Shown here piece after piece: positions 2,388-18,354 of a stretch of 38,658 nucleotides of DNA. Below the pieces are notes generated by a model. That model worked only from the letters and a program-made list of their open reading frames with translations. It made no database searches and was not told the DNA's origin. The stretch's first letter is position 1; each line of letters opens with the position of its first letter. The translations under genes and the position numbers were made by a program. The DNA comes from a virus (taxonomy: Duplodnaviria > Heunggongvirae > Uroviricota > Caudoviricetes). The DNA is taken from IMG/VR virus record IMGVR_UViG_2529293219_000028. The stretch is one strand, 5' to 3'.

Positions 2388-4427
2388 TTATTCTGTTACC
2401 GCTTTTTTCACTTCCACCACAATGCTGTCAATCAGCACCGGGTAAGTTGCATTTTTTGTGATATCCGTTACGCGGAGTTTGTCCACCGGGAAAGTTCCTA
2501 CTGGTGACTGCGTCAGGGTAAACGCGGCACCATCCTGACCATCAATAACCGGAATAACCTGAAGGCTGTTATTTCCTGCAAAACGGAAGGCCAGCGTATG
2601 CCATTCATTATCAAATGCACCAAAGGTTCCCAGTTTCTGGTTATTTGTTGCCACTTTTGCATTGTGGTACATCACATTCAGGTCTTTTGCGTCTGTCTGG
2701 ATGTAGAACGATGCCAGCAGATTATTCCCTGCATCCCCTGTCAGGGTGACACCCTGCGGCAGAGAGGAAACCGGCCAGTAAAGCCCCATGACATACTGGT
2801 TTGCCACCAGGTCGCCAGGTACTTTAAAACGACAACTGATTAAACCACCATTTTTCAGCAGTTCAGCACCAGTACCGGCATCATGATCCAGATACCAGGA
2901 TGATTTACCTGTTTCCTTGGTCAGTTTCATTGCCTTACCACCTGTGCCTCCTGCATCACTGATAATTTCAGCTTTACCGCCAGCCGGCTCCCAGCCCTGG
3001 GCTTTCAGATTTCCTTCTGACTCACTGACACGATAAGACAGCAGTGTTGTGGTTACTGCTTCAGTTTCTGAAGGTGACGGCACTGGTGCTTCAGTTTCAG
3101 AAGATGGAACATCGGCTTTTACTGTGGTTCGCCCCGCATGAGTCAGAACTGCCGTGGCCAGACGGTCGGAAATAATCCCACGACGTGCCCATGAACTGAA
3201 ATGGCTGGCCCGGTCCGCAGATGTCCAGGTGGCGGCACTGTTACGCCACGTTGAGCCGTAATAACCAATGGATTCAATATCCGGGTCTTCTGCCGGATTG
3301 TTGGTGGGTACATTCGCGTCATTTTCATCTGTCATTAATGGAACGAAATGAATGTTTTTATCTGTTTTGTTTTTGTAGCCGCCATAGATTGCCTGGTATG
3401 CCGGTTCATTTTTCTGTTTCCAGAAATACGTGGTATCGCCACAAATCCACGGAACGCCAGCAGCACTGCCACCGGTACACTGTTCCGCCTGTTCAGCCAG
3501 GTCTGCGCGGAATTTTTCCACCATCGCCAGAAACAGCGCGGAATGCTCCGTCGGCTTCGCATCAATATCAAACTCGCCCTGCATCCACACCACAGCAAGC
3601 AGGCGGTTTTTCGGGTTCTTCGCCAGTGCCGCTTTTGTCCGGCTGATTAAGTCCTTATACAGCGGCTTATCCACACCCCAGCGGGCTGAGTCCTCTGAAG
3701 CACCCGTGCTGTCACTGTACGTGCCGTCAGCACCCGCCGTGAATGCAGAACCACCACGGCAGCAGGGAACCAGCAGAATCCCCGCATCTGCCGGAATAAA
3801 CGGCAGCAGTTTTTTGGCAATGTGAAGCCCCTGACCCACGGTGCCATATTGCCCTTTAGCCACATCCGCTTTCGGGTGATTTTTTCCACTCATATCCTGC
3901 ACATCATGCAGACAGTGGTCGGCCAGAATGATGTCGTTATACTGACAGGCTTTACCTCCCGGCGTGACTGTACTGCGACGGGCTAACTGCATAATACGCG
4001 GTTCGGGGCGGTCATATGTCTCCGGCAGTGGCAGACCTTCACCGTAAGCCATACCGTTTGACTGACCAGCAAGAACCACCACGTAATACCAGGAAGGGGA
4101 GCTGGAAGCAGTTTCATTTCCTGACGGACGGGTATGTGTTTCAGCATTATCCCAGTCTGACGGTTCAGCAGTACCGGCAACATCAGCACTTAACGGAATG
4201 ACCGCACCAATACCCGCTCCGGTAATTTCCACACTCGGATCACCGGATACTGGCCTTACCCACAGGCAATCCCGTGTATTAAAACTGATGAGACAGTCAG
4301 CAAATGTCATTCCTCCTTTTGTTTCGGCCGGAGGAAAGGGAGCCTCAAGAAATGCCGCTGTACCACCGGAAACTTTAACAGTAAAGTTTCCGGGCATTGA
4401 TGATAGTTGAACCCATTTGGACGTCAT
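2388..4427 (-). CDS. Large cargo protein with a SASA/SGNH-type carbohydrate O-acetylesterase domain and a C-terminal lectin-like domain (NanS-p-like)
   Basis: 679 aa; VVVLAGQSNGMAYGEG motif at residues about 117-130; short tandem PSSETEA / PSPSETEA linker; beta-rich C-terminal third; sits between gin and com-mom. Confidence 0.6.
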   Translation of the reverse strand: MTSKWVQLSSMPGNFTVKVSGGTAAFLEAPFPPAETKGGMTFADCLISFNTRDCLWVRPVSGDPSVEITGAGIGAVIPLSADVAGTAEPSDWDNAETHTRPSGNETASSSPSWYYVVVLAGQSNGMAYGEGLPLPETYDRPEPRIMQLARRSTVTPGGKACQYNDIILADHCLHDVQDMSGKNHPKADVAKGQYGTVGQGLHIAKKLLPFIPADAGILLVPCCRGGSAFTAGADGTYSDSTGASEDSARWGVDKPLYKDLISRTKAALAKNPKNRLLAVVWMQGEFDIDAKPTEHSALFLAMVEKFRADLAEQAEQCTGGSAAGVPWICGDTTYFWKQKNEPAYQAIYGGYKNKTDKNIHFVPLMTDENDANVPTNNPAEDPDIESIGYYGSTWRNSAATWTSADRASHFSSWARRGIISDRLATAVLTHAGRTTVKADVPSSETEAPVPSPSETEAVTTTLLSYRVSESEGNLKAQGWEPAGGKAEIISDAGGTGGKAMKLTKETGKSSWYLDHDAGTGAELLKNGGLISCRFKVPGDLVANQYVMGLYWPVSSLPQGVTLTGDAGNNLLASFYIQTDAKDLNVMYHNAKVATNNQKLGTFGAFDNEWHTLAFRFAGNNSLQVIPVIDGQDGAAFTLTQSPVGTFPVDKLRVTDITKNATYPVLIDSIVVEVKKAVTE

Positions 4428-4526
4428 AATAATCAGCCTGTTCCTGAATAAACTGAATTATCATATCCACAGACCGATAAACGCCATTTTGCGTTAATTC
4501 AGTAAAGGCCCAACAAAGAGAGCGTC

Positions 4527-5087
4527 TTATTTTTCCGAAACGCTCGCAGGATAATAACGATAAAGGGTTGAAAGGCCGATATCAAAAATAAGTGCCACCT
4601 GTCTTCGACTGACACCCCCGGCCAGTAAACGCCCGACCTGCTCGTATTGTTCCTGCGTGAGACGACGGGGTCTGCCGCCGGTTCGTCCCCTTTCACGGGC
4701 AGCTGCAAGACCAGCCCGTGTCCGTTCGACAATTAATTCACGCTCCATTTCTGCCAGCGCACCCATTATGTGAAAAAAGAAGCGCCCCATGGGGGTTGAC
4801 GTATCAATGTTGTCAGTAAGACTACGAAAATTTATCCCCTGTTGCTGTAATTCATCTGTCAGCGCAACAAGGTGGCGCATACTGCGCCCCAGCCTGTCCA
4901 GTTTCCAGACCATCAGTGTGTCACCGGGTTTTAGTTTCTTCAGTGCCCGCTTCAGTCCCGGCCGCTGTGTCGTTTTACCACTCATTTTATCTTCAAAAAT
5001 CTGCTCACATCCTGCACATTCCAGCGCATTTCTTTGTAAACCTGTGTTCTGGTCATTTGTTGATACGCGTATATAGCCAATCAGCAT
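4527..5087 (-). CDS. gin: Gin/Hin/Cin-family serine DNA invertase
   Basis: MLIGYIRVSTNDQNTGLQRNALECAGCEQIFEDK...MGRFFFHIMGALAEMERELIVERT is near-identical in pattern to Mu Gin; lies 56 bp from the left boundary of the invertible segment. Confidence 0.9.
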   Translation of the reverse strand: MLIGYIRVSTNDQNTGLQRNALECAGCEQIFEDKMSGKTTQRPGLKRALKKLKPGDTLMVWKLDRLGRSMRHLVALTDELQQQGINFRSLTDNIDTSTPMGRFFFHIMGALAEMERELIVERTRAGLAAARERGRTGGRPRRLTQEQYEQVGRLLAGGVSRRQVALIFDIGLSTLYRYYPASVSEK

Positions 5088-5141
5088 GTATTTACCTTCC
5101 TTAAAAAGAGGTGGAAAGGCCTTTTAAAGCAGATATACGGC

Positions 5142-5167
5142 ATCCCTGAAACCTTCGGTTTACGGGA
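5142..5167. other. Candidate gix-like crossover site (left); near-palindrome TCCCTGAAACC-TTCG-GTTTACGGGA
   Basis: Palindromic core AAACC..GGTTT exactly where the inverted-repeat homology begins, just upstream of gin. Confidence 0.55.
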
Positions 5168-5335
5168 TACTGTAAACAGGGCCGCGAATGCCCTGCCATC
5201 GAACGGAGCGGCTGTTGCAGCGAATAAACTCGCCACTCCAAGAAATATTAATGGTGTCCCATTTGACGGAACGCAGGATATAAATATTACATCGGGGATG
5301 ACGCAGTCTGTGGCTGACTCACGTTATGTTCAAAG
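5157..5335. repeat. Left inverted repeat of the invertible tail-fibre segment (about 180 bp, roughly 80% identical to the reverse complement of 6351-6529)
   Basis: Manual alignment; both copies start at GGTTTACGGGA and share runs such as CCAAGAAATATTAATGGTGT and TTTGACGGAACGC. Confidence 0.8.
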
Positions 5336-5513
5336 CATTCGAAGAGGTTCAAGGTCAACGATTGGAATGCAATATAATATTTTTGAGGTTCCTGACGGAT
5401 GCGTACTTACAGGGCTTGATGTCGCTGGTGATGGTAATGCAACGGTAACCGCATATTATCGACCTGTTCAGTTTCTGATAGATGGTTCGTGGAAAACAGC
5501 TTCCAGCGCATAA
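5157..5513 (+). CDS. Alternative tail-fibre C-terminal cassette (S'v-like), startless and currently not joined to the fibre gene
   Basis: Frame is open from 5064 with no in-frame start; encodes ...GLRDTVNRAANALPSNGAAVAANKLATPRNINGVPFDGTQDINITSGMTQS..., paralogous to residues about 205-260 of the minus-strand fibre, then diverges (ORF-track 5298..5513). Confidence 0.7.
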   Translation, partial: GLRDTVNRAANALPSNGAAVAANKLATPRNINGVPFDGTQDINITSGMTQSVADSRYVQSIRRGSRSTIGMQYNIFEVPDGCVLTGLDVAGDGNATVTAYYRPVQFLIDGSWKTASSA

Positions 5514-5592
5514 AAGTGCAGTAGTTCAAAAAACAGATTATCTGAATAAATATATGATGATTTTGTCTTTTCAACAAAAACAAGGTGAAATA

Positions 5593-6114
5593 ATGGAGCT
5601 TATTAACGTAAAACGATATTACCCGGAACACAAACCCTATGGTGAGGATGTTCAGTATTTCCAGAGTGAGGACGGAAGGGATTTTTATGAATCTATCCCG
5701 CTTTTCACAAAGAAATACAAACTCTGTATTTCGCCTGTAACGGGTATTATCTGCTCTGTTGCTGAAGATGTCTCTGCTTTATATCCGGCAGGTTTTACTG
5801 TTGTTGAAGTGGACGAACTGCCGGAAGGTGTGAATATTGACGGTAACTGGCAGTTTTCTGATGGCCTGATATCAAAGGTGCCGGTAAACTGGAAGACGGT
5901 TGCTGAAAAGCGCCGCTCATCGCTGCTCCAGGAAGCCAACGAAACTGTGGATGACTGGAAAACGGAATTAAAACTGGACATGATTAGCGATGAAAATAAA
6001 TTACAGCTGACGCGCTGGATGGCGTATATCCGACAGCTTAAAGAAATGCACTTTAATGATATTGCCAGTGAGGGGCATTACCAGGCGATTCCCTGGCCGG
6101 AAAAACCGGAATAA
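5593..6114 (+). CDS. Tail fibre assembly (chaperone) protein, Mu U/U'-like
   Basis: MELINVKRYYPEHKPYGEDV... with the AAGGTG RBS before the ATG at 5593 chosen as start; ORF-track frame 5482..6114; identity called from position and general Tfa-like character, not a recognised motif. Confidence 0.7.
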   Translation: MELINVKRYYPEHKPYGEDVQYFQSEDGRDFYESIPLFTKKYKLCISPVTGIICSVAEDVSALYPAGFTVVEVDELPEGVNIDGNWQFSDGLISKVPVNWKTVAEKRRSSLLQEANETVDDWKTELKLDMISDENKLQLTRWMAYIRQLKEMHFNDIASEGHYQAIPWPEKPE

Positions 6115-6120
6115 TTCAGA

Positions 6121-6146
6121 GGGTGCATTCAGCACCCTTTTCTGTG
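6121..6146. terminator. Bidirectional hairpin between the convergent fibre and chaperone genes
   Basis: GGGTGC-ATTCA-GCACCC stem-loop followed by TTTTCT. Confidence 0.5.
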
Positions 6147-6148
6147 GT

Positions 6149-7060
6149 TTACACTGAACTTACCGTTCTCCAGGCATTATTAATATAAATCTGAACCGGG
6201 CGATAATAGACCCCACCGATATTGTCCGCAGACCGGGAGCCGGTTTCCTGCACGTTAATTCCGGAAAGCATACAACCGGAAGGTGCGCTGTAATTCCATG
6301 ACATTTCATTGCCTCCGGGTGAATGATAGCTCTGTGCTCCAAGCTGAACATTCTGTACATACCGGCCATCTGCGGTTGACTGCGTCATTCCTGACGTGAT
6401 GTTGATATCCAGCGTTCCGTCAAAAGGAACACCATTAATATTTCTTGGGGTGGCGAGTCTGTTTGCTGCCACGGCGGTTCCACCCGATGGCAGGGCATCA
6501 GCAGCCTTATTTACCGTTTCCCGTAAACCAACGTTATCGATAAAAGCGCCTTTATCCGGAATGTCTGCGCCGTTCTGCTCCCTGCGCAGGTAACGGTTAT
6601 CACCTTCGCTTTTGCTGTAAACATCCAGATTATTACGGGCGGTTCCCGCATTCTCCAGGTCGGCAAGGTTCTGATCCTTCGCCAGAGCATTAACGTCACC
6701 GGGACCAAGACTGTTTTTTGTGGCAAGCGCCCCAAGACCAAGATAACCACGGGCAAGACGCTGGGCTTCCGCACCGGCATCAGCAATTTCTTTCAGGTTG
6801 TTTTTCCGGGAAAAGGCATTCGCAGCGATAATGGCTTTAATGGACAGCGTAAGCTGGTTTAACTGCGCCTTATCCGGCTGAATACTGGCTTCAGCCAGAA
6901 TATTCAGCAGTTCGGCCTGGAGAATATTCAGCCAGTCCTGACCAATCCAGCTGATACCTTTTTGTCCGTCACCTTCGGTAAACCAGGTGGTGGTATTACT
7001 CTGCGCCGGTGCCAGCGCAGGCATATTCGCCACGCCGGAATTATTATCAACATGGAACAT
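6149..7060 (-). CDS. Tail fibre protein (constant part plus the currently expressed variable tip)
   Basis: Start placed at the internal Met at 7060, whose ATG overlaps the upstream gene's stop by 1 nt (track start 7114 would overlap by 55 nt); C-terminal part runs through the right inverted repeat. Confidence 0.8.
   Translation of the reverse strand: MFHVDNNSGVANMPALAPAQSNTTTWFTEGDGQKGISWIGQDWLNILQAELLNILAEASIQPDKAQLNQLTLSIKAIIAANAFSRKNNLKEIADAGAEAQRLARGYLGLGALATKNSLGPGDVNALAKDQNLADLENAGTARNNLDVYSKSEGDNRYLRREQNGADIPDKGAFIDNVGLRETVNKAADALPSGGTAVAANRLATPRNINGVPFDGTLDINITSGMTQSTADGRYVQNVQLGAQSYHSPGGNEMSWNYSAPSGCMLSGINVQETGSRSADNIGGVYYRPVQIYINNAWRTVSSV
6351..6529. repeat. Right inverted repeat of the invertible segment, inside the tail fibre gene
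   Basis: Reverse complement aligns with 5157-5335. Confidence 0.8.
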
Positions 7061-7620
7061 TAAATATTCTCCTCTTCGTGACTGTTTGCATATACGTAAA
7101 TAAACGTCTGCCATGCAGGCTTATAACGGTTCAGAATACATTCCAGCGCACCGCCTTCATAAATACGCAGCGGCGTGAGAATATCATCCAGCACATTCAT
7201 ATTCCGGTAGCCGGTTTCACTGTTAATCGTGACAATACTGACCCACTGTGAATCCGGTGATGGCTGAATATCTATTTCATAACCAAACTCTGCCGCAAAC
7301 CGGATATAAAATTCACGGTTAAGAGAGGGTTTCATCCGGTATTTATTCCCGGCATAACGCTGACGCTCCTGAATGGTTGCGCCGGTCATATCACATTCCG
7401 GTAACCCCAGATAACGCTCCCAGTCTTCCAGCAGCAGACGGGATGAATCAGGAAAACGTTCTGCCAGCATCTGGTTACCGGTCCAGGAAACACGCTCCGT
7501 GGAATGACTGAGGCCCAGGCACAAAGCCGCAAGAACGGATGACGGCCGCTTATCCCATGCCAGCCCGTCAGGCAGCAACTGCAACAGGGCGCGCTGATGC
7601 GGGGTCAGGGTTACAGCCAT
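7060..7620 (-). CDS. Tail/baseplate protein (Mu gp48-like)
   Basis: 186 aa; position between the baseplate J-like gene and the fibre gene. Confidence 0.7.
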   Translation of the reverse strand: MAVTLTPHQRALLQLLPDGLAWDKRPSSVLAALCLGLSHSTERVSWTGNQMLAERFPDSSRLLLEDWERYLGLPECDMTGATIQERQRYAGNKYRMKPSLNREFYIRFAAEFGYEIDIQPSPDSQWVSIVTINSETGYRNMNVLDDILTPLRIYEGGALECILNRYKPAWQTFIYVYANSHEEENI

Positions 7621-17959: not shown

Positions 17960-18354
17960 GCACGGGCCTGTTCCGCTTTGTTACCGGTCTTTTTCCGGGG
18001 AGCATCCTGTCCGGCTTCGGCTTCGGCTTCGGCTTCGGCTTCGGCTTCGGCTTCGGCTTCGGCTTCGGCTTCGGCTAAATCTGTACCGGCCACTGCATGA
18101 ACCACACCCGCCACGCTCCCCGCATCATCAGCAGACGTCTGTAGTATTCGCACAGTGAGGCATGGCTCCTCCTCCAGTCGGGCAAGCTGCTCCGGGGTGA
18201 CCTCAACCTGCTGACGTCCACGCGTGAACAGGAACCCCGCACGACGAAACGCCGAACGACTGCAACGCACTTCTGCCAGCACCGTGACAGAATTGTCACC
18301 ACTGACCTGAAGACCTGAATCATCTGTTGCTGCCACAGTGTGATGTTCATTCAT
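17956..18354 (-). CDS. Hypothetical head-region protein with an internal (Glu-Ala)n tract
   Basis: 132 aa ORF directly downstream of the major head gene; contains about 11 EA dipeptides encoded by the hexanucleotide repeat. Confidence 0.6.
   Translation of the reverse strand: MNEHHTVAATDDSGLQVSGDNSVTVLAEVRCSRSAFRRAGFLFTRGRQQVEVTPEQLARLEEEPCLTVRILQTSADDAGSVAGVVHAVAGTDLAEAEAEAEAEAEAEAEAEAEAGQDAPRKKTGNKAEQARA
18013..18076. repeat. Perfect tandem hexanucleotide repeat (GGCTTC)10 plus a partial unit
   Basis: Direct reading: ggcttc repeated from 18013 to 18072, then ggct. Confidence 0.95.

Follow-up and report, generated by a model that had tools for sequence, protein, structure and literature searches.

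A compact Mu-type invertible tail fibre segment with a lengthened crossover site in an Sp18-type prophage

What is the function of the short stretch of DNA that separates a gin-like gene from a tail fibre gene in a Mu-like prophage, and is that function still exercised in a copy in which one of the presumed crossover sites is altered? The question is raised by IMG/VR virus record IMGVR_UViG_2529293219_000028, a stretch of 38,658 nucleotides referred to here as the window, in which a gene for a serine DNA invertase of the Gin family abuts a pair of long inverted repeats, one of them located inside the fibre gene. The window is a Mu-like prophage of enterohaemorrhagic Escherichia coli, of the type of Sp18 in strain Sakai. 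Positions 5142–6543 very probably form an invertible host-range segment, the counterpart of the G segment of phage Mu, flipped by Gin at gix-like cores. The element works like the Mu G segment and belongs to the Gin/Hin/Cin/Pin class.

The segment exists in both orientations, with breakpoints at the cores. The flipped sequence was modelled by inverting the window between the junctions 5156/5157 and 6529/6530, and its fibre-side junction was searched for in all complete E. coli genomes. This modelled junction, in which an alternative fibre end (tip B) is joined to the constant part of the fibre, is present as a contiguous 700-nucleotide match in 15 complete genomes, in two of them at 100%, bearing out the invertible segment of about 1.37 kb that a previous sequence-only reading had proposed. 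Four flipped loci were fetched. Their flanks are unchanged, with an identical Gin protein and the DUF6645 gene to one side and gp48 and the baseplate genes to the other; the tail fibre assembly gene (tfa) is on the late-operon strand and the fusion fibre of 295 residues is intact. When Sakai Sp18 is inverted in silico between its cores and compared with strain 2014C-3050, only 3 differences are found in 6,239 alignment columns, versus 818 for the uninverted sequence. The repeat arms are swapped whole in the flipped genomes and the breakpoints fall within 11 identical bases next to the core, which argues for site-specific rather than homologous recombination. Flipped copies are also found among IMG/VR and metagenome contigs, including relatives carrying a third tip, C.

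The gix-like sites are located at the outer edges of the repeat arms and delimit a segment of 1,373 bp (Table 1). In the 18 related loci for which both sites were available, IMG/VR and metagenome contigs among them, all sites have the 12-2-12 arrangement and the cores at the two ends match (TT/AA in 4 loci, TC/GA in 14). Covariation of this kind is expected if the ends have to base-pair after exchange; serine recombinases need matching cores for strand exchange, and mismatched 2-bp overlaps give only trace recombinants (PMC11607074). Flipped copies carry either core type, and tip C occurs among them as well. As in Mu, the crossover lies inside the fibre motif GL(R/Q)ETVN, and the gin-proximal inner half-site differs by one base from its Mu gix equivalent, GGTTTACAGGAA. 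In the window, the fibre-side site conforms to a 26-bp, 12-2-12 site, while the gin-side site, which is 12-2-12 in Sakai (cores TT/AA), is 12-3-12, reading AAACC TTC GGTTT with an extra C at position 5156. The AAACC..GGTTT core described in the sequence-only reading is found beside both arms, but its left copy has a spacer of 3 bp (TTC), where every related site has 2 bp. For the two cores of the window to match as TT, the inner half-site has to be shifted by 1 bp; in the other register, TC is confronted with TT and the cores are mismatched. A multi-site system of the Min or shufflon kind is ruled out, as no more than two gix-like sites are present in the whole window.

Table 1. Features of the invertible segment in the window, and crossover sites of its relatives and of Mu
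Feature	Positions	Strand	Remarks
gin-like serine DNA invertase, 186 residues	4527..5087	-	Pfam Resolvase 1.4e-51, HTH_7 1.7e-14
Gin-proximal gix-like site	5142..5168		ATCCCTGAAACC TTC GGTTTACGGGAT; 3-bp spacer from extra C at 5156
Left arm of inverted repeat	5157..5335	+	about 80% identical to right arm; translation GLRDTVNRAANALPSNGAAVAANKLATPRNINGVPFDGTQDINITSGMTQS; first ~50 residues of silent tip B
Silent startless end, tip B, 118 codons plus stop	5157..5513	+	open frame from crossover
Tail fibre assembly protein tfa, 173 residues	5593..6114	+	Pfam Caudo_TAP 1.9e-18; phrog_136, 1.1e-57
Terminator-like hairpin, then T run	6118..6140	+	9-bp stem, consensus scan; downstream of tfa
Whole fibre gene, 303 residues	6149..7060	-	downstream of Mu-type baseplate genes gp48, gp47
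Expressed variable end, tip A, 126 residues	6149..6529	-	no tfa behind
Right arm of inverted repeat	6351..6529	-	inside fibre gene 6149-7060(-)
Fibre-side crossover site	6518..6543		TTCCCGTAAACC AA CGTTATCGATAA, 12-2-12; resembles Mu gix TTCCTGTAAACC GA GGTTTTGGATAA
Constant N-terminal fibre part, 177 residues	6530..7060	-	RefSeq 'tail fiber protein' WP_000469162.1; phrog_1833, 5.5e-166
Relatives, gin side			ATCCCTGAAACC NN GGTTTACGGGA(A/T), core TT or TC
Relatives, fibre side (same sense)			TTATCGATAACG NN GGTTTACGGGAA
Mu gix			TTATCCAAAACC TC GGTTTACAGGAA

A repeat search yields one long inverted repeat, with arms at 5148–5332 and 6354–6538 that are 185 nucleotides long, 77% complementary and 1021 nucleotides apart. 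BLASTN of positions 5100–5600 against the reverse complement of 6100–6600 aligns 152 nucleotides at 82.2% identity (E = 2.5e-41). Both arms are opened by GGTTTACGGGA (5157–5167 on the plus strand and 6519–6529 on the minus strand), adjoining AAACC..GGTTT-type sequences; counted inward from it without gaps, 24, 22, 26, 27 and 24 bases are identical in successive blocks of 30, covering the first 150 nucleotides. Identity remains high for about 150–175 nucleotides and then falls to background. The inverted repeats of about 180 bp and 80% identity, their common starting sequence, the position of the right one inside the fibre gene, and that of the left one at the head of a startless frame that is open for 118 codons and encodes an alternative fibre end, had all been read correctly from the sequence, and on pairwise alignment the repeat proves not to be an artefact. 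Recombination takes place not in the repeats but at the gix-like sites, each 26 bp long, that border the arms on their outer side; the repeats of about 180 bp are the homologous first 50 or so codons of two alternative fibre ends. In three relatives (L011, L013 and L003) the arms encode identical or mosaic sequences, both starting with GLRETVNKAADALPSGGTAVAANKLATPVNINGV in L011, which points to gene conversion between the arms in addition to inversion at the sites. A short motif in the repeat arm, AANRLATPRNINGVPFDGT..DINIT (window 6380–6480, fibre residues ~194–235), was also found by a genome scan in distant taxa, among them Bacteroidota and Clostridia, where it occurs in putative fibre genes (L023–L056). 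Apart from this short motif in unrelated phyla, the scan of genome contigs with the fibre gave only relatives of its amino-terminal part (Citrobacter braakii, Edwardsiella) and is uninformative on the switch.

The invertase gene named in the sequence-only reading is a convincing member of its family. The protein has the architecture of the small serine recombinases, an N-terminal resolvase catalytic domain followed by a C-terminal helix-turn-helix domain, and shares 136 of its 186 residues with Mu Gin (73%), the solved structure of which is its best structural match (3UJ3, E 2.3e-91). Ser9, the nucleophile (PMC3575834), is present. The protein is listed in RefSeq as 'recombinase family protein' WP_000904930.1 and is the same in flipped and unflipped genomes. 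Systems of this class have a Fis-bound enhancer about 100 bp from one of the sites, in the 5' part of the invertase gene (PMC3798978); here, the gin-side core is about 68 bp from the start of gin, a geometry that fits, since an enhancer 100 bp away would fall in its first codons. We infer that this Gin catalyses the inversion and depends on Fis and an enhancer to do so. Dimers of Gin would bind the two gix-like sites of 26 bp, which are oppositely oriented, the first some 55 bp upstream of gin and the second inside the fibre gene, and would cut both at the central 2-bp core, after which rotation of the subunits would exchange the ends and flip the 1,373 bp in between.

The segment has a constant N-terminal fibre part outside it and two opposed, alternative C-terminal ends inside it. 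In the present orientation, the late operon would produce the 303-residue fibre, made up of the 177 constant residues and the 126 residues of tip A, and no chaperone gene would follow. Inversion would give a fibre of 295 residues, in which the constant part continues into the 118 residues of tip B; the single tfa gene and the terminator-like hairpin would come next in the operon. The T run is on the plus strand only, so the hairpin would act as terminator of the late operon in the flipped state alone. In the flipped genomes, tip B is indeed fused in frame to the 177 constant residues, resulting in an intact 295-residue fibre. The exchange of 75 for 68 residues originally proposed is correct as to an alternative carboxy-terminus; the two lengths correspond approximately to the part beyond the repeat, and from the crossover the ends are 126 and 118 residues long. 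Overall identity between the two fibres is 82%, with divergence setting in after GMTQS; beyond the repeat the tips differ strongly, and each may confer a different receptor specificity. Tip A is present in every related locus. In strain 2014C-3050, which is flipped, the silent tip A (L002, ~2030–2410) contains two single-base deletions with respect to Sakai, reflecting either decay of an unexpressed copy or assembly errors.

Fibre residues 1–198 are 46% identical to residues 1–191 of Mu S, and the last ~70 residues of tip A are 41% identical to Mu S residues 437–503; the fibre can therefore be described as Mu S minus its central ~245 residues. Pfam contains no model that recognises the fibre, and the PHROGs families label it only as 'tail fiber protein'. 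The tfa protein is 28% identical to Mu U. Its gene is the sole tfa of the segment; in all loci examined it accompanies tip B or tip C and in no case tip A, and it is on the late-operon strand in flipped genomes only. The segment is compact because the tips are short and there is a single tfa gene. A promoter scan of positions 4300–7300 gave 8 promoter-like sites, against 4.5 ± 2.3 in shuffled sequences, none of them placed to drive tfa in the present orientation.

Turning to the window's own copy, the exact site with the 3-bp spacer is present in 36 genome records. A further 122 records are in the 95–99% identity band and, among the matches listed, have a site that is one base shorter. The 3-bp spacer is absent from all 18 IMG/VR and metagenome loci, and a flipped junction carrying the extra base was not found in the genome records. 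Copies with the 3-bp spacer were fetched at four insertion sites, and all four are in the tip-A orientation. Carriers of the TTC/AA pair of cores include strains E2865 (NZ_AP018808), 10153 (NZ_AP027191) and 12E115 (NZ_AP024921). In a 12-3-12 site, one Gin subunit would be expected to sit out of place with respect to the scissile bonds. We judge it an even call that the extra C at 5156, which makes the gin-side site 12-3-12, would strongly slow or block flipping and leave this copy in the tip-A state.

Several observations weigh against a Gin- and Fis-dependent switch that is held in one state in this copy. The single copy in the window is known from assembled sequence alone. A scan with a degenerate 15-mer Fis motif over the first 330 nucleotides from the core picked out one weak match in Mu and none in the window, the motif itself being weak. 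Tip A lacks a tfa, unlike the tips of Mu, P1 and e14, so that its fibre would have to fold without a chaperone gene of its own. The difference in flipped copies between genomes with the 3-bp spacer (0 of 36) and the others (15 of ~150) is a weak contrast, with a Fisher p of 0.04–0.08 for genomes that are not independent. Finally, strain FRIK2533 (NZ_CP015842) has the same 3-bp-spacer TTC site and over 12.3 kb differs from the window only at position 6530, where A is replaced by G. Its other core, AA in the window, is thereby GA and agrees with the aberrant site read in the TC register. Recombination may have left this trace, which speaks for some remaining flipping activity; a lone substitution would fall on any of the four core bases with a probability of about 3e-4.

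The last two of these observations can also be taken to mean that the switch is fully active in this copy, the extra C being tolerated, with cleavage in the register AAACC/TT/CGGTTT or AAACCT/TC/GGTTT and the single orientation being due to recent clonal spread. The Gin protein, intact and identical to that of the flipped genomes, is compatible with such activity. We nevertheless consider it rather unlikely. All 18 other loci keep the strict 12-2-12 spacing, and searches for the two sides gave no flipped junction with the extra base. Use of the TT register would move the extra base into the fibre gene and break its reading frame, while the TC register leaves the window with mismatched cores, of the sort that give trace recombinants only (PMC11607074).

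The cores themselves vary between close relatives. In near-identical copies compared over 7–14 kb (L016, L018, L008 and L010), the differences fall on the cores, at window positions 5154–5156 and 6530–6531. Two relatives, L008 and L006, differ from the window at both cores; over 13.9 kb, the differences of L008 (TC/GA) are limited to the two cores, two substitutions and a 12-bp repeat indel. This indel is at window positions 18012–18023, where two CGGCTT units are present in the window and none in L008. The cores look like the fastest-changing positions of the prophage, and change at the crossover dinucleotides looks associated with the recombinase. As a hypothesis, the core changes fit rare recombinase-mediated exchange between non-identical cores, followed by segregation. 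More tentatively, the cores could be mutational hot spots driven by the invertase, with the TTC spacer as a natural intermediate or phase-lock in a series from TT/AA via TTC/AA and TTC/GA to TC/GA. On the same tentative reading, a phage locked in a tip-A, tfa-less state would still have reached four or more insertion sites and a number of serotypes.

Homologous recombination by RecA between the 180-bp arms, instead of Gin, could also flip the segment in principle, and the homogenised or mosaic arms of the three relatives mentioned above indicate that arms do exchange sequence homologously. This origin of the two orientations is highly improbable and was rejected. The arms are only about 80% identical, making them a poor substrate for RecA; they are swapped whole, with the breakpoints at the outer edge within 11 identical bases, and no chimeric arms are seen in 2014C-3050 when compared with Sakai. 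Moreover, the dinucleotides of the two cores change together in all 18 loci, something that homologous recombination does not require. Least probable of all is that there is no biological switch, the orientations being assembly errors across the repeat or the left copy a decayed duplicate, as the RefSeq labelling of the silent parts as fragments or pseudogenes might suggest: assembly artefacts were rejected because fifteen independent complete genomes, together with metagenome and IMG/VR contigs, have junctions that are precise to a single base, a repeat this short and this diverged would not mislead an assembler, the frames of both tips stay open in every locus, and the four flipped loci examined all have an uninterrupted fusion fibre.

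In 182 complete genomes, of serotypes O157:H7, O26, O103, O145 and others, at least 80% of the 2.9-kb region is covered. When 7 kb of Sakai Sp18 are compared with the window, there is a single-base difference, C5156 being missing in Sakai. The Sp18 region has been called an 'invertible host-specificity region' with genes differing from those of Mu (Asadulghani et al. 2009, PMC2669165), so the core of the present finding is already in the literature; the invertible fibre region of Sp18 has been known since 2009 and is the same element as that of the window. The main text of that paper devotes one sentence to its invertibility, without sites, orientations or a test. The authors also show packaging of Sp18 DNA and the production of Mu-like particles, which are released spontaneously (PMC2669165). 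What is added here is modest: the matched 12-2-12 cores, the allele with the extra C and the variable cores among near-identical prophages, of which the series of core alleles, together with the tfa asymmetry, would be worth following up.

Bases 1 to ~137 of the window are host flank. The prophage allele with the 3-bp spacer occurs in four strains (L001, L018, L019 and L020) at four places: near yeaR/IS609, in dcuC, in the portal gene of another prophage and beside tauB. Four different places are as expected of a transposing Mu-like phage, and the phage carrying this allele is therefore mobile. Between gin and com/mom, on the minus strand at positions 2388–4427, a protein of 679 residues is encoded that has no Mu counterpart. 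It contains a sialate O-acetylesterase-type (SASA) domain (residues 116–312) and a DUF6645 domain (residues 524–642; phrog_143, unknown function), and it could be a virion-associated, receptor-modifying enzyme. When the DNA was compared with the phage collection, the segment itself matched only two Stx phages carrying an inserted Mu-like phage, while gin alone resembles Mu, D108, SfMu and P2-like phages.

A Gin-type switch is of a textbook kind and can be recognised from sequence alone. Annotation pipelines either overlook the flipped fibre or wrongly label it 'hypothetical', and they treat the silent parts as pseudogenes. In RefSeq, the flipped 295-residue fusion fibre (L002–L005, 3044–3931) is a 'hypothetical protein' in two genomes and represented only by a 67-residue fragment in two others; where the segment is unflipped, it is the silent tip that bears the name 'tail fiber protein', and an open reading frame across the gin-side site is flagged as 'frameshifted'. 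Comparisons of enterohaemorrhagic E. coli prophages should therefore treat both orientations as one allele. The locus also offers a fibre switch with a chaperone gene in only one of its two states. In addition, the phage is inducible and forms particles, and its crossover cores make up a natural series of alleles, with a 12-3-12 site among them. Such a series provides a route to studying how serine invertase sites evolve with their ends staying matched.

Compared with the G segment of Mu, the gene order is the same, with gp47, gp48, the fibre gene, the invertible segment, gin, com and mom. The sites of the family also resemble Mu gix: they are 26 bp long with a 12-2-12 arrangement, the inner halves GGTTTACGGGAA and GGTTTACAGGAA are nearly identical, and the Mu core TC is the commonest core here. 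The crossover is in the same fibre motif, with the constant part 46% and the tip 41% identical to Mu S. The layout is smaller than that of Mu, as the sequence-only reading had stated (1.37 kb against about 3 kb). The fibre has 303 residues versus 504 and is without residues ~191–436 of Mu S, and there is one tfa gene where Mu has two (U and U'), so that a chaperone gene for each tip is not a feature of this element. About 180 bp of diverged homology lie inside the sites, in contrast to the 34-bp repeats of Mu. At the DNA level, likeness to Mu is limited to gin (71.5% identity over 18% of the query), and unlike in Mu there are extra genes between gin and com/mom, among them that for the 679-residue esterase-domain protein.

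In the C segment of P1, the cix crossover sites are placed at the outer ends of long inverted repeats of ~0.6 kb, a layout that shares its logic with the ~180-bp arms here, and 'localized conversion' of crossover dinucleotides is described for Cin. The P1 segment differs in being ~4.2 kb long, with two chaperone genes and near-identical arms. The e14 prophage has two tfa genes. Its P segment in E. coli K-12, inverted by Pin, is likewise a compact invertible fibre segment, of 1,797 bp, with short sites in two opposed fibre genes, and Pin-type enzymes of other prophages can act on it in trans (PMC12529663). Unlike the segment described here, it is set in a lambdoid-type side-fibre context, and its arms are not long diverged repeats. 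The G segment of SfMu has a 1-bp change beside the central crossover bases of one repeat, which was proposed to reduce or abolish inversion (PMC4406740), and thus provides a precedent for a naturally impaired site in a Mu-type switch. In SfMu a base is substituted, and the G segment has the full Mu-like size; here a base is inserted and the spacer made longer, and the spacer of this copy is the only departure from the strict definition of the site.

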